NCBI RefSeq assembly: GCF_963506605.1 | Contig: NC_083290.1 | Span: 25,296,001 to 25,360,000, forward strand | Reading direction: 5' to 3' | Length of the DNA stretch: 64,000 nt | Source: Zootoca vivipara | Taxonomy: Eukaryota | Part shown: positions 7,213-20,189 of the stretch, in pieces | How positions within the stretch are numbered: position 1 is the first letter of the stretch | Layout of the letters: every line of letters begins with the position of its first letter | The notes under the pieces: generated by a model | Told to the model about the DNA's origin: nothing | The model's input: only the letters and a program-made list of their open reading frames with translations | Databases searched by the model: none | Made by a program: the position numbers and the translations under genes

Positions 7213-7556
7213 CTCTGTGGGTTAAACCACTGAGCCTAGGGCTTGCTGACCAGAAGGTCAGCGGTTCGAATCCCTGTGGCGGGGTGAGCTCCCGTTGCTC
7301 GGTCCCAGCTCCTGCCAACCTAGCAGTTCGAAAGCACATCAAAATGCAAGTAGATAAATAGGAACCGCTATAGCGGGAAGGTAAACGGCGTTTCCGTGTG
7401 CTGCTCTGGTTTGCCAGAAGTGGCTTTGTCATGCTGGCCACATGATCTGGAAACTATACGCCGGCTCCCTCGGCCAATAATGCGAGATGAGCGCGCAACC
7501 CCAGAGTCGGTCACGACTGGACCTAATGGTCAGGGGTCCCTTTACCTTTACCTTTA
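7213..7556 (+). mobile_element. Sauria SINE
   Basis: Head ctgtgggttaaaccactgagcc, B-box ggttcgaatccc, tail ccctttacctttaccttt. Confidence 0.9.
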
Positions 7557-10904: not shown

Positions 10905-11046
10905 CAAGCATAGGCAAACTTGGCCCTCCAGATGTTTTGGGACTACAACTCCCATCATCCCTGACCACTGGTCCTGTTACCGGTAGCTAGGGATGATGGG
11001 AGTTGTAGTCCCAAAACCTCTGGAGGGCCAAGTTTGCCTATGACTG
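10905..11046. mobile_element. Palindromic hAT MITE, caggcataggcaaac-type ends
   Basis: Same internal core as 10678-10813; perfect TSD gtttacag. Confidence 0.9.
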
Positions 11047-11338
11047 GTTTACAGCATTTCTGACTCACCCTTTAGCCAAAAGGTGTGTCAGAGTCAGAGC
11101 AGCTTACAAAAATCAATTCTAAGATGGTCCTGACCTTAGGTTCACAATCTAAAAATATGTGACACAAGAGGAAAATGGGAATAGGAGGGAGGAGGGAAAA
11201 ACCAAGCTCAAGCACAACTTCTTAAAAGTGACAGCCCATGCCAGTGAAAGTCCTGTCTATTTCGCGTTTGATGAGATGGGTTTCCTGAACTTTCATCCCA
11301 CCATTGCTTTTATGAGGCGCTTCCTTGGAATTACAGTA

Positions 11339-11693
11339 TAAGGTAAAGGTAAAGGGACCCCTGACCATTAGGTCCAGTTGTGACCGACTCTGGGGTTGCG
11401 GCGCTCATCTCGCTTTATTGGCCGAGGGAGCCGGCGTACAGCTTCCAGCGTGTGGCCAGCGTGACTAAGCCACTTCTGGTGAACCAGAGCAGCACACGGA
11501 AATGCCTTTTACCTTCCCGCTGTAGCAGTACCTATTTATCTACTTGCACTTTGATGTGCTTTTGAACTGCTAAGTTGGCAGGAGCTGGGACCGAGCAATG
11601 GGAGCTCACCCCATTGCAGGGATTCGAACCGCTGACCTTCTGATCGGCAAACCCTAGGCTCTGTAGTTTAACCCACAGCACCACCCGCGTCCC
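11339..11693 (-). mobile_element. Sauria SINE, full length
   Basis: (AAAGGT)n at left and head ...cacccgcgtccc at right; degenerate TSD cttggaa.ta.ag. Confidence 0.92.
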
Positions 11694-11727
11694 CTTGGAA
11701 CTATAGAGAACATTTATTTACACCCCA

Positions 11728-11850
11728 CCTTGGCCCTCCGGCTGTTTTGGGACTACAGTTCCCATCATCCATGACCACTGGTCCTGTTAGCTAGGGATGG
11801 TGGGTGTTGTAGTCCCAAAACAGCAGGAGGGCCAAGTTTGGCCATGCCTG
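11728..11850. mobile_element. Palindromic hAT MITE, left end degraded
   Basis: Core gactacagttcccatcatcc...gttgtagtcccaaaacagcaggagggccaagtttggccatgcctg. Confidence 0.75.
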
Positions 11851-11884
11851 CTGCAAGCAGCTCAAGGCGGCACACCTGCTTCTC

Positions 11885-12020
11885 CCCACTACTCATTCTC
11901 CCCGCACAACCACCCTGCGAGGTAGGCCAGGCTGAGAGGCAACGTGGGCTGGCCCGAGCTCACCCAGTGAGCCTCCACTGCTGAGTGGGGAATTTGAACC
12001 CGGATTTCCCCGCTCCCACC
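11885..12020 (-). mobile_element. MIR/Squam-like tRNA SINE at the edge of the CpG island
   Basis: Reverse complement of the family at 8440 (cacaaccaccctgcgaggtaggc...gaatttgaacccgg). Confidence 0.65.
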
Positions 12021-12470
12021 GCACCCCCACTATGACCCCTTCTCCGCCGCCCTGCCGGCTCCTGACTTTTCCTCCTCCCTCCCCTCCCGCCTTCCTCTCC
12101 CCTCTCTGCCCCATCCCAGAGGCGCCCGTCCCTCGGAGCGCCTCTGCCTCCGACGCGCTTCCCCGCTTTGCTTGTAGCTCTTGGCTCCGCTACGCAACTC
12201 TCCGGTTTCCATCGGAGTTGGGGAGGAGGGAGAGAGGAGGGTGGGGAGGGGGAAAAGAAGGCCGGCCGGCGGAGCTGGCTTGCGGCCTCCTTCGCCAGAG
12301 TAAGCGGTCCTCCTTCTTCCCCAAGCAGCCGGGAGCGCCAGCTTGCCAGCCCAGCCGCAGAGCGCCGCCGCCGCCGCGTGAGTATTGCAGATCCACGCGG
12401 GCTGGTGGGCTAGGGAGACTGGGCGGCCGGTTGCTAACTTGCCTGCTTGGGGCTGCCGTTTCTCCCGACT
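11990..12470 (+). promoter_or_regulatory. C1QTNF5: CpG island: probable C1QTNF5 promoter and non-coding first exon, donor GC|GTGAGT at 12378 (alternative GA|GTAAGC at 12300)
   Basis: Sharp rise in GC and CpG, (GCC)n run directly before a consensus donor, G-rich tract 12220-12252. The next coding exon has an acceptor 11 nt before its ATG, so it needs an upstream exon. Confidence 0.7.
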
Positions 12471-13702
12471 TTGCTGACACCACCTTGCTTTTGTTTTGGG
12501 ACCGACACGATCCCTTTAGAAGATCATCCGGGAGTTGGGAAATGCCTAGCGAGAGGAGATTTTGCTTTATTTGGGATTGATTTTAATCCGAGACACCCAA
12601 AAGCCTTGCCCCCCCCAAAATGCACTAGAAGAAAGAGCTGTTTACTTGGGGTAATTGATATAAAAATGGCCAAAGTTTGTGGCTTTTAAGAAAGAATGGC
12701 CTGATCCGGAACCCACCAAGGGGCGAGTGGGGTGGTGGTGGTCTGGATTCCAATTTCGAACTAGTCCGGTTTTTATTGAGTATTCATTCTGATTTGTTCC
12801 GCAGTGGTGATCCTAATTTGCTTGTGGGGTGTTTATGCATCTTCCCATGAATTAGTCATTCATCCCACACTTTTCAATGCATTTTCCCACCACTTTCTCA
12901 GCCACCAAAAGTCTGGGTTGGTTGTTGTTGTTGTTGTTTTAAGTGGATTTGTTGCTCCAGGGGAAGAGAGTGCTGTAATCTACTTGAATTGCGCAAACCT
13001 AGATTTCCTGGGGTGCTCTTGAAGCCTTCCTGAAAAATAACATACAGGATACGCCCAGAGGAGCATCTGGTGAACATTCCAGAATTTGAACTCAGGTCTC
13101 CTGGTCCTAACCACTATGTGCTAGGCCACTCTGACTCTTGGGAAGGTGTGGGAATGAGGGCCTTTGATTGCTGCAAGTGCCCCACAGGTTGGAAAGAAAG
13201 TCAACCATTCTGGTCTGATATTCACCATTATATCTCACGCACAGACAAAGGTAACCTTCACGTTATATGCAAAAGTTACTGCTACTTGCAATCCACAGGT
13301 AGGAGACTAATACTAAAAGTCAGTAGTGAAACTTGGTTTTTGCTTATTGCTTAAAAGGGCCTTGTGCCCTATATTCTCAACATCATTGCAACAGTCCTGC
13401 TAAGTTGGCCTGTTTTATTAACCCCATTTTGCAATCCGTTGTAGATCAGACAGACCAGTAGAAATCCTAGAGCCGTGAAGACAGAACTATATGCCAATGG
13501 CTCATTTTTCTGCCTATATTAGTACAGTTGCATGCCACCCCAGTCTGAGCTATGCGAGATTCCAGGGACACCAGGGATTACCCAGGGTTTGGTTTCCTCA
13601 GAATGAGGGACAACGTAGACTGGTATCTTTATGGTACCATAAAGATATATACAACCTTGTATATATACCACTGGTATATATACAACCTGAGCCTGAGTGT
13701 AT

Positions 13703-13847
13703 GGGGTATTAGGGGGAGGGTAGTACCTTCCCTGGGAGGGCACCCCATCCTGGACTCAGCTCTCACCTATGGCTCCTAGAAGCTGTGAGCATGTGACAGC
13801 AACCACACCCTGGGAATGGCTTTGGCTGGCTGGCTAAACCAGGTGAG
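13703..13847 (+). ncRNA. Degenerate HDV-like self-cleaving ribozyme fold
   Basis: P1 GGGGUAU(13703-09)/ACACCCU(13805-11); P2 CUCACCU(13762-68)/AGGUGAG(13841-47); P3 GGC/ACC; L3 UCCUAG; P1.1 CC/GG(13812-13); J4/2 GCUAA with C13834. The elements occur in HDV order. Confidence 0.6.
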
Positions 13848-14034
13848 GGTAGCTGATGGGTCTCAACGCCTTGGTGAGTTAGGGACCTCCCCTGCATGCA
13901 AAGACAGGCTCTGGCAGATTGAGTGGACAAGACCAATTGTCTCTTGATCAATGGTCAAGAAAGTAGTTTCTGCACGTGCTTTAGGGGGAAGGGGCAGATG
14001 GGGCTTGTCAACCTGGGAAAAACTCTGATCCTCC

Positions 14035-14259
14035 TCCTCCCCCTCCCCCTCCTCCTCCTCCTCCTCCTCCTCCTCCTTTGGCAATCACTCGTATCCGAGT
14101 AAGATTGTCTTCCATAAACACAGTTTTAACAATGGGTCTGTAAGTGACTGTGGAGGCCAATTCTGGATCCACACGTCCTTCCACAGTGGGGACATTGGTT
14201 TCCAGGTGGGAGTTGATCATGGTGTGGATTTGTGCCAAGCGTGCCTTCCTCTTAGCATC
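14035..14259 (-). mobile_element. 5'-truncated RTE LINE 3' end with (GGA)n tail
   Basis: Homologous to 14575-14775. 12-bp TSD ctctgatcctcc (14023-34, 14260-71). Confidence 0.85.
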
Positions 14260-14559
14260 CTCTGATCCTCCACTGCCTTGCTGGATATATTTGGGAGAAG
14301 AAAAAGCTAAGGAGTAAACCCTACCCAAATCCGGAGACCCTAAGACGGTTGGATGGTGCCTTGTGCACCTCCTTACGGCAACTCCTACAGCCAAGCTAGT
14401 GCCAAACGTCTTGCTCTGCTTCCCTGTGGACCCCACCAATGAGGCCAAAAGTCTTGGTGTCTGGGCAGTTCAGGACCTCCATACACACTGCCCAGGCTTG
14501 CACCCCTAGGAGGTCACTTCAGTGCTGATAATGCAGCAGTTTGACTTCACACACACACA

Positions 14560-15050
14560 TCCTTCTTCTTTCTCTTCTTTGGTGATCACTTGTAGCCAAG
14601 TGAGATTGTCTTCCATGAACACGGTCTTAGCAGTGAGTCCGTAAATGACTGTGGAGGCCAATTCTGGATCCACACGTCCTTCCACAGTGCGGACATAGGT
14701 TTCCGGATGGGAGTTGATCACGGTGAGGGTTTGCCAAATGTGCCTTCCTCTTAGCATGTTTCTCCCTTTCATCCTGAGTTTGAGCATGTTCAAAGTCCAC
14801 AGCACCTTTGGTCAAGGCTGTTCTCCAGTTGGAGCACTCTCAGGCCAGTGTTTCCCAATTGCCGGTGTTTATACTACATTTTTAAAGATTTGCCTTGAGA
14901 GAGCCTTTAAACCTCTTTTGTTGACCACCAGCATTACGCTTTCCATTTTAAAGTTCGGGATAGAGTAGTTGCTTTGGAAGACGATAGTCAGGCATCCGAA
15001 CAACATGACCAGTCTTCAGCCAGTTGATGTTGAAGAATTGTTGCTTCAAC
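14560..15050 (-). mobile_element. RTE-clade LINE 3' fragment, degraded ORF C-terminus
   Basis: Minus translation contains RLPKQLLYPEL..GKR..GGQQKRFK and ends CPHCGRTCGSRIGLHSHLRTHC (RTE C-terminal zinc finger). (GAA)-type tail. Confidence 0.85.
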
Positions 15051-16099
15051 ACTCACCCCACTACACCCCCAGTCCTCACTAGGCCCAGGCAATGCTGAAA
15101 GAATGTAAAGCATTGAGATTTTGGATGGGTTTGCTGCATTCCAGTCCTATTAGCTATGGCTAAATCCCAAAGCTGAAACTTATAGGAGCTCTTAAGACAA
15201 CCTGGACACTTGCAAAAAGTGGCAAAAGATGGCAGAGGGAGGAGGGAGAGGGGAAGAAATGACAAAGGAAAGGAGAAGTAGATGAGCAAGTTGTCAGGAC
15301 AGGCTGGCTGGCTGGCAGGCAGGCAGAAGGAGGGTAAAACCAGGACAAAAGTTCATAGGCTGATTCTGTGGTTTGAAGGCTGTGTTGCCTGCCCGGCTGG
15401 CTCCTGGCATCAGTCGTGCCTCTAGAGGACTAGCCTCTTGGGAGGCTCTGACTTCTTTCCTCTGATTCCATGGGAGACAAAAGGAGCGTGACATCCCAGA
15501 CAGTTGCTTAAGAGCCAGTTCACATTTTCTCCTCTCTGTCTCTCTTTCCCCTGCCCCCATCACTCACCACAAAATACACAAAATGCAGCTCAGGAAAGCC
15601 AGAGAATACTGAGCCATTTGAAGCTCCCAACTGTTCCAAGGGAATCATATGCATTAATGGATTTAGGTTGCACAATTGCTAGTCTTACAGTTGGATTAGG
15701 GTGTGGAGGCTCCCTGGGAGATAAACCATGGGGGTGGGTGTCTAAGAGGCAATACTCTGCTCTGGTTTTGCTGGAATTCTTCTAACTGTTCACAAAACAG
15801 TTGCTGCGATTAATTTCTGTGGGGAGAGGTGGAATGCTAACCTGATTAAAAACCAGTTGGACCTGGAATCTTAGCTGCAGGTCTGTGGGATGAGGAAGGT
15901 GAGATAAAGACATTCTGCACATGCTCAGTGGCGCCATCTTTCACATTAAGCCAGCCGGAAAGTTGTGTGGATTAAACAAAGATGGGGAGAACCTTGTGTT
16001 CCTTGGAGGTGGGATAGCCATATAATAAATGAATAATAATAAATATTCTTGACTGACTAAAACTCTGGAAATCTAATGCACCAGGGAGCAACATAAAAT

Positions 16100-16290
16100 C
16101 ATAGGAAGCTACCTTAGACTGAGTCGCACCCTTGATCCATCAAGCTCTGTACTATCCACACAGTTTGGCCATGACTCTCCAGGGTTTCAGACTGGGGACG
16201 TTCCCGGTCCTACTTGGGAATGCAAGGATTGGACCCCACAGACTTTCTGCATGCAGAGCAGATGCTCTCCCACTGAGCTGGACCCCTTCC
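16100..16290 (-). mobile_element. tRNA-headed SINE with CR1-like tail (second copy at ~34675-34860)
   Basis: gctcagtgggagagcatctgctctgcatgcagaaag head on the minus strand; tail ends ...cttcctatg. Confidence 0.6.
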
Positions 16291-16800
16291 CTTGCTCAGT
16301 CTAGTCTAGGTCAAGCATTCTAGCTTAGTTCTTTCCAGCTGCACTTCTTCCTATTTGCAGTGATTTTTTTGTTTTGTTTTAACTGTATGGGAGAACATAA
16401 AAAGAGCCGAGCTACTTGGTCTGACCAAAGGCCCATCTAAATAGCCCAGCATCCTCACAGAGACCAATCAGATACTGGTGGGAAGCCAGCAAGCAAGACC
16501 CGAGGGGAACAGTACTCCCCCCGCCCCTTGTTATTCCCAGCAACTGGTATTCAGAGGCTACTGAATACTAAACCAGTCATACTGCAGACAGTACATAGGC
16601 ATCACAACTTGTAGCTACTGGTAGTCTTGGATTTGTTTAATCTTTTAAAGCCATCCAGTTGGCAGCCATCACTGCCTCTTCTGGAGAAAAGAAACACCAA
16701 CAGTTAACTATGTTAGCTGGCAAACTTGAGAAGGCTGGGGAACGCAGAGATGGTCTCAGCTGCTAGGCAGGTTTATATGGGGGCAAAGCAGTCCTTAAGG

Positions 16801-17118
16801 CAGGCATAGGCAACCTTGGCTCTCCAGATGTTTTGGAACTACTGTACAACTCCCATGAACCCCCTAAAACACATATTCAAATATCTACTCACGTTATTCC
16901 TACTAAATAGGTGGACAGATTCTTTGAAGACATTTCACCAAAATGAACTTTTGACACAGATGCTGCCAGGATTGCTATACCACTGGCACCCCCAAACTTC
17001 AGCCCTCCAGATGTTTTGGACTACAATTCCCATCTTCCCTGACCACTGGCCCTGTTAGCTAGGGATCATGGGAGTTGTAGTTCCAAAACATCTGGAGAGC
17101 CAAGTTTGCCTATGCCTG
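16801..17118. mobile_element. Chimeric hAT MITE carrying an inverted copy of 23142-23357
   Basis: Outer TIRs caggcataggcaacc / gtttgcctatgcctg; TSD ccttaagg/ccttatgg. Internal 16865-17080 is the reverse complement of 23142-23357. Confidence 0.9.
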
Positions 17119-17353
17119 CCTTATGGCATCCCAGGGTCAGATTTAATAGGCCTAATTACCTAGGGCGAGTAGGAATTTCATGCAGGTGACCATTCAAGGA
17201 AGGTTTACTAAACTTGGTCCTTTGGGGGCATAAATGCATTGGATCAGGTAAGCTTTAAAATAATTTCATTTGTGGACCTATTTGCAAAAAAACCACTTCC
17301 CTGAAACCTTTTGGAGGTATTTGACAAACCTTCTCTCTGTAGACCGCCTAGAA

Positions 17354-19792: not shown

Positions 19793-20189
19793 GAGACGAC
19801 TTGCCTCTCTCCGCCATGCAATTTGCGGAGAATTCCCGCGTTCCCTTTCTTAGCTCCGCCACGGCTGTCGTCCGTGGGGATACCTGTGGCCCTTCTTAAC
19901 CCGAGGGGTGTGGCACCCCTTTAGCTAATGCCTGTAATAGGGTTGTCGGTTCCTCCCAGAAGGTGTCTGGCAAACCCTCAGGCCAAGGTCGGGATAGCTG
20001 TGCAGCAGAGAAGTAAAGTGACCTTTGTAGCGCACTAGCAAACAGTGTACTCCTTGCGGAGTAGATTTGTTTTCTTTCTATATATATATACACACACATA
20101 CATATTTAGGGCTCTGCCCCCCTTGCTTCGCTCGCCAGCCCCACCTACCCCTTTGGTAACCACCCTGCCCCACATCAGATGTCAAATGA

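Follow-up and report, generated by a model that had tools for sequence, protein, structure and literature searches.

A variant HDV-like ribozyme fold predicted at the 5' end of a non-autonomous RTE retroposon family, with a decayed copy in the inferred first intron of C1QTNF5 in Zootoca vivipara

A 64,000-nucleotide stretch of the Zootoca vivipara genome, here referred to as the window, carries at 13694–14550 a sequence that, judged from the homologies of its two ends, is a decayed copy of a bipartite non-autonomous RTE retroposon of about 745 bp. The reading we favor, with a probability of about 0.78, is that this copy has decayed neutrally and is likely inactive, and that the 5' end of the ancestral element was likely an HDV-like self-cleaving ribozyme with a predicted cut 5' of 13694. 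At the level of the family we regard the HDV-like 5' end of this RTE-derived retroposon as real on sequence grounds, in a variant form that has a hairpin in L3 and a tandem P1 strand. Family coordinates are given throughout such that position 1 is window 13694 and position 10 is window 13703. The coordinates of all features are collected in Table 1.

Table 1. Features of the retroposon copy, its predicted 5' fold and its surroundings, in window coordinates
Feature	Position	Strand	Remarks
Non-autonomous RTE retroposon copy	13694..14550	+	Family positions 1–696; last ~49 nt and CAA tail absent; 87–91% to family majority over aligned pieces
Likely family 5' end and actual P1 5' strand; cleavage predicted 5' of 13694	13694..13700	+	From start map, folding and L268 compensatory pair; window copy has T for G1 and A for G3
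Tandem duplicate of P1 strand (P1 of the preliminary description)	13703..13709	+	Likely 5' arm of P1.2, the J1/2 helix; may be a minor alternative cut site
J1/2 domain	13710..13758	+	52 nt, against 89 nt in family; 40-nt deletion; P1.2 3' arm ~13752–13757
P2 5' strand	13759..13769	+	7-bp core 13762–13768, extends to ~11 bp; A13769 is G in family
P3	13771..13804	+	13771–13773 with 13802–13804; A13802 breaks one pair; closes 28-nt L3 starting UCCUAG
Hairpin inserted at 3' side of L3	13782..13800	+	5 bp here and 6–7 bp in family; L268 and L342 retain it via one-sided G-U changes
P1 3' strand and GG of P1.1	13805..13813	+	P1' 13805–13811; GG 13812–13813
P4	13817..13832	+	13817–13821 with 13828–13832; compensatory G-C to C-G in L342
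J4/2 GCUAA	13833..13837	+	Catalytic-position C13834
P2 3' strand	13840..13850	+	Pairs with P2 5' strand
Younger RTE LINE 3' fragment inserted into element	14033..14259	-	10-bp target duplication 14023–14032 and 14260–14269
Second 3' fragment of same younger RTE	14560..15030	-	Abuts truncated 3' end of element
Host intron, inferred first intron of C1QTNF5	12378..17342	+	Exon contig 12263–12377; ATG 17354; coding exons to 19792

Genome searches returned 3387 first-look candidates for window 13690–13990 and 1981 for a 91-nt query from the 5' end, both of which are counts of candidates and not copy numbers. The family majority sequence is free of ORFs and ends in a CAA tail, and the 5' ends of 37 copies that were anchored at the 3' end are scattered along the element, a graded truncation as predicted by target-primed reverse transcription. 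Both ends are of RTE origin. The 5' part is 77% identical over 326 nt (family positions 3–326) to the 5' UTR of an RTE on a metagenome contig, L268, in which a PF03372 endonuclease ORF lies downstream of the homologous region; a second relative, L342, is 67% identical to the family. These were the two homologous sequences among 117 pattern matches in the 46 of 64 parts of the metagenome scan that were covered, and none of 48 pattern matches in viral contigs was homologous. The 3' end is 75–80% similar to RTE LINE copies L121–L140, a relative of whose protein carries PF00078. The pattern of an intact RTE C-terminal motif identified 23 copies of this old LINE in the genome, and 14 of the 20 that were fetched match the 3' end of the family, most at 75–80% over about 60 nt. 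The combination of an RTE-like 5' UTR and an RTE-like 3' end with a microsatellite tail, 5' truncations and no ORF identifies the family as a bipartite non-autonomous RTE, and the two homologies support the proposal made in the preliminary description that the HDV-like fold belongs to the 5' end of a non-autonomous RTE-derived family.

Bipartite non-autonomous elements of this type (RTESINE1/2, WALLSI3, MAR4_MD and Bov-A) are described in the available sections of PMC5786205, and the present family is like them in that it joins a 5' part to the extreme 3' end of an RTE LINE, retains the 5' end of the LINE, lacks an ORF and finishes in a microsatellite tail. It differs from them in being squamate, and may already bear a name in Repbase or Dfam. 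No autonomous copy bearing the family 5' UTR was found in the genome at 20 RT loci or 30 endonuclease loci, 24 of the latter matching the unrelated 5' end of a younger RTE instead, and a pattern search for the 5' end of an autonomous partner gave one match, which is unrelated. A longer subfamily, with 70 additional nt near the 3' end that finish in codons of the RTE C-terminal motif, is likely the ancestor of the short form; its members (L065, L071, L076, L079, L090, L093, L100 and L005) retain the final codons of the ORF of the parent RTE. Family positions 424–665 are also found directly upstream of the C-terminus of the RTE ORF in L121 (1136–1377, oriented), possibly as a chimera or through a separate bipartite deletion. 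The 5' truncations seemed to cluster around family position 335, which would have suggested a second ribozyme, but the cluster is gone in the 37 copies anchored at the 3' end.

The motifs from which a nested double pseudoknot had been proposed are all present in the window, with GGGGTAT at 13703, CTCACCT at 13762, GGC at 13771, TCCTAG at 13774, the hairpin at 13782–13800, ACACCCT at 13805, GG at 13812–13813, GCTAA at 13833 and AGGTGAG at 13841. The three A residues that had been read as mismatches repaired by G are indeed G in the family, in 16 of 18 aligned copies at 13708 and in all 18 at both 13769 and 13802. With G at these positions, the family majority matches an HDV descriptor (a permissive one, built for this analysis) with no mismatches, a match that none of 2000 shuffles made from its first 200 nt attains. 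There are two such matches, one at family position 1 and one at position 10, since the family has two P1 strands in tandem (window 13694 and 13703). The five HDV helices and the core bases can be fitted to the majority and to both distant relatives: P1 makes seven of seven pairs with the upstream strand and opens with a G paired to a pyrimidine at the predicted cleavage site, and P2, a 3-bp P3, P1.1 (CC with GG) and P4 are arranged in nested order, P2 of L268 having a 1-nt bulge. All three sequences have UCCnnG in L3 and GCUAA in J4/2, corresponding to the U and G reverse-wobble positions and to the catalytic-position C and A, and the C at 13834 is present in 17 of 18 copies. The second base of the family CUAA is a U, where the J4/2 of the HDV descriptor in PMC6326823 is CRRA. 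Across the three families, which are 67–77% alike, the catalytic C, the P1.1 pairs, the U and G of L3 and a 7-bp P1 that starts with G-C are constant, while L3 positions 4–5 and J1/2 drift. The G1·U wobble previously assigned to the cleavage site probably reflects CpG decay of a G1-C pair, position 13811 being C in seven and T in nine of the 18 copies and C in both L268 and L342. The register first given for P4 rests on an A13825G change private to this copy, and in the family P4 adjoins J4/2.

The preliminary description placed cleavage 5' of G13703, but the start sites of the copies point to the upstream duplicate of the P1 strand, 9 nt away at 13694. From 74 loci with the 5' part, 49 including the window copy were aligned over positions 10–23 and 25 were dropped; 34 of the 49 start at family positions 1–3 (13694–13696), three at positions 4–5, and 12 at positions 7–13. 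Most copies do not begin at 13703, an outcome that the preliminary description had itself named as counting against its cut site. Constrained folding, with energies that take in the nested parts only, likewise gives a more stable structure with the upstream P1 strand than with the internal one, both for the majority (−78.4 versus −71.2 kcal/mol) and for the CpG-restored majority (−85.0 versus −79.2 kcal/mol). The difference is 8.5 kcal/mol in L342 (−69.5 versus −61.0) and at least 13.6 kcal/mol in L268 (−73.4 versus −59.8 or worse). In L268, P1 pair 2 has undergone a double change from G-C to U-A, with which the first strand retains seven of seven pairs and the second strand is broken. The starts at positions 1–3, the folding energies and this compensatory pair together favor the upstream cut site, and the strand at 13694 is likely the P1 strand. 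The minimum-energy fold pairs the second strand with family positions 96–101, closing a J1/2 helix of about 90 nt. Either a second cut or stalling of reverse transcriptase at the base of this helix could account for the 12 copies with starts near position 10. Target-site duplications in 19 full-length copies are mostly ambiguous and too decayed to fix the 5' boundary; the family 5' boundary, as mapped from the copy starts, coincides with G1 of the predicted ribozyme.

The hairpin that had been recognized within J1/2 is private to the window copy, in which this segment is 40 nt short. The L3 hairpin is a family feature, as proposed, and is present also in the distant relatives L268 and L342; its pair probability is 0.99 in the family majority and 0.24 in the window copy. 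The unpaired positions of L3 vary across L268, L342 and the family, and the hairpin is maintained there with one-sided changes only and no double change. Canonical HDV-like ribozymes have a short L3 of about 7–8 nt. The lizard family has an L3 of 28 nt, with slightly shorter ones in L268 and L342, and it is for this length and the inserted hairpin that we call the fold a variant. The hairpin is located 3' of the equivalent of G25, and in HDV the 3' side of L3 is solvent-exposed. An extended P3 competes with this arrangement, with a pair probability of 0.12–0.29. A search for other L3 subfamilies in the genome gave eight matches, all of which we interpret as mutated copies of this family. We found no literature on an L3 hairpin in HDV-like ribozymes or on this family, although the primary RTE paper (Ruminski 2011) was outside the scope of the search and may show such a case.

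The window copy itself is likely to be catalytically dead, because it has lost G1, has mismatches in P1 and P3, and lacks 40 nt of J1/2. In the upstream register pair 1 of its P1 is U-U and pair 3 is A-C, and in the internal register P1 contains an A-C; P3 has a C-A mismatch and a pair probability of 0.0, and L3 mispairs with 13810–13815 at a probability of 0.55. Folds that contain P1 lie 18–20 kcal/mol above the minimum, compared to 2.8 kcal/mol for the CpG-restored majority. The catalytic C, P1.1 and the U and G of L3 are intact. The suggestion in the preliminary description that this copy is attenuated or dead is therefore upheld in part: it is probably dead, as P1 and P3 are broken, but there is no sign of an attenuation that spares the host transcript, since the core decays neutrally. 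Among 44 copies, about half of which were picked by likeness to the window copy, non-CpG changes are present in 149 of 1967 core cells (7.6%) and in 8.1–8.7% of non-core cells. The window copy has two core breaks in its best P1 register and the median over the same 44 copies is three, two of the 44 having none; the 16 picked on J1/2 alone are worse, with a median of four. An APOBEC-type excess of G>A changes in the window copy was considered and rejected, 15 of 180 being the family rate (271 of 3267). The CPEB3 ribozyme is a single-locus ribozyme. The core at the present locus is not preserved above the neutral rate in the way that marks a host-domesticated, CPEB3-type ribozyme. The copy is most likely a neutral fossil without effect on C1QTNF5, and its location within an intron of this gene looks incidental. 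Elsewhere in the genome the exact P3-L3-P1'-P1.1-J4/2 core is present in 88 copies, compared to none in the control; among 30 exact-core loci examined, one (L458) also has an intact upstream P1 and P2, and it is the best-preserved genomic copy.

Several observations bear on whether the HDV-like pattern has arisen by chance. Rfam searches at E≤10 gave no HDV-type match in window 11000–17000, in L268 or in L342, folding z-scores are about zero (0.33 for the window copy), and covariation among 19 lizard copies is nowhere above that of shuffles. Over six sequences there are two double changes, at P1 pair 2 in L268 and in P4 of L342, and as many are reached in 45 of 500 shuffles. The window copy alone matches the descriptor only at two mismatches, which is chance level, as 12 shuffled 64-kb strands gave 12 such sites (about one each) and the real + strand has four. 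The chance-level match, the z-scores and the lack of an Rfam match would all fit a fortuitous arrangement within a GC-rich retroposon 5' UTR, but we consider such an origin extremely improbable, given that none of the shuffles matches the majority, that the match begins at the first base of the element, and that compensatory changes are seen in P1 and P4 across families. A less remote though still unlikely explanation is that the fold is HDV-derived but made slow or inactive by the L3 insertion, and serves as a structured 5' cap or as a translation or RT-binding element, the 5' ends being set by an internal promoter or some other process. The unusual length of L3, the competing extended P3, and the spread of starts over family positions 1–3 are all consistent with this, as are the IRES-like and protein-binding roles of such folds reviewed in the available part of PMC6765202. 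It accounts poorly for the retention in three families of the catalytic C, P1.1, the U and G of L3 and a 7-bp P1 amid drift of L3 positions 4–5 and J1/2, and for the coincidence of the 5' boundary with G1.

It can also be asked whether this sense intronic copy is cut 5' of G13703 and is either selected for attenuation or weakly active on the C1QTNF5 pre-mRNA. In the window copy the 13703 strand pairs with P1' with one mismatch only, the 40-nt deletion shortens the helix that would normally sequester this strand, and the internal register is better than the upstream one by 2 kcal/mol (−45.5 versus −43.5); the 12 of 49 copies starting at positions 7–13 and the intact P1.1, catalytic C and L3 residues U and G point in the same direction. 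Even so, we regard this as improbable, as both P1-containing folds are far above the minimum with P3 unformed and L3 misfolded, and the internal register fails in L268; attenuation is further disfavored by a break count under the family median, neutral decay of the core, and G>A changes at the family rate.

According to the reading we prefer, a neutrally decayed copy of an element with an ancestral 5' ribozyme, the ribozyme would have cut 5' of family position 1 and so freed the element RNA from read-through host transcripts. The first GGGGUGU strand would form P1 and the second would form an arm of the J1/2 helix, P1.2, and this helix together with the extended P2 may pinch the core, as in drz-Agam-2-1. 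Catalysis would be by C13834, the hairpin would be tolerated on the exposed 3' side of L3, and the element would be mobilized by the reverse transcriptase of a partner RTE that recognizes the shared 3' end. We hold as more tentative, and on balance doubtful, the larger proposition that an RTE lineage has an active and undescribed HDV subclass, with the L3 hairpin and with a tandem P1 strand alternating between a place in the P1.2 helix and use as a second cut site, that it has been missed by standard models, and that some of the 88 exact-core copies still cut lizard transcripts.

HDV-like 5' ribozymes are known in the non-LTR retrotransposons RTE, R2, R4, Baggins and L1Tc, the RTE cases being those of Ruminski et al. 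2011 as cited in PMC5786205, PMC6765202 and PMC3774820. As far as these sources describe them in the sections available, the family resembles them in having a nested double pseudoknot at the first base of the element, a G1-Y pair, two C-G pairs in P1.1, U and G in L3, the catalytic-position C in J4/2, and a proposed role in release of the element RNA; it differs in its 19-nt hairpin within a 28-nt L3, in being a squamate non-autonomous family, and in that its activity is predicted. The ribozyme drz-Agam-2-1 of the mosquito, in which a short linker, a structured P1.2 and an extended P2 constitute a 'pinch' (PMC4908430), is similar in its short linker, its long structured P1.2 in J1/2 and its extended P2 (of 12 bp, against about 11 bp in the family). 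Unlike drz-Agam-2-1, for which the available part of PMC4908430 describes no L3 hairpin, the family appears to use a tandem duplicate of the P1 strand as an arm of P1.2. For R2 ribozymes, tandem P1 strands are discussed as a route to shifted cut sites (PMC3774820), and the family shares with them two tandem P1-competent strands able to shift the cut site and to lengthen J1/2; the R2 duplicate comes from the 28S target, whereas that of the family is fixed inside an RTE element that is not site-specific. The CPEB3 intronic ribozyme (PMC6765202) is alike in presenting an HDV fold in sense orientation within an intron, but it is described there as conserved in mammals, whereas the window copy is one of thousands that are decaying and its core is broken.

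The interest of these observations rests in the variant fold and not in the C1QTNF5 copy. If the fold is active, an entire helix can be accommodated in the catalytic L3 loop of the HDV fold, which would widen its known tolerance, account for the failure of Rfam-type models to recover such RNAs, and offer a new engineering site beside the active site. It would also provide a vertebrate RTE 5' ribozyme that is open to a simple bench assay.

The sense orientation of the element within C1QTNF5 intron 1, as given in the preliminary description, agrees with the coding exons on the + strand and with RNA data that list the second splice (17571/19273) and, further upstream, an exon contig that terminates at a GT donor at 12378, from which the joint between exons 1 and 2 is inferred. 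In three RNA runs from the same species the depth is 0 at 13420–13723 and 0–2 at 13724–14027 with no molecule ends listed, which is too low to bear on cleavage. The younger RTE that contributes the two minus-strand fragments in Table 1 has a sharply defined 5' end (L196–L221), its copies are about 95–97% alike, and it is unrelated to this element by blastn. Two AT-rich palindromes are located directly upstream of the element, a perfect one of 24 nt at 13624–13647 and one of 29 nt with a single mismatch at 13657–13685. The 3' UTR of C1QTNF5 at 19860–19975 also matches the permissive HDV descriptor, with one mismatch for a C at 19925 and two for a C at 19971; this match is probably due to chance, as one of 12 shuffles reached one mismatch. 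The window further contains SINE copies at 7218–7555 (+) and 11342–11692 (−), which we take to be of the Sauria type, as well as several MITE-like hairpin repeats; at 11729–11837 one of them scores weakly against miRNA families.
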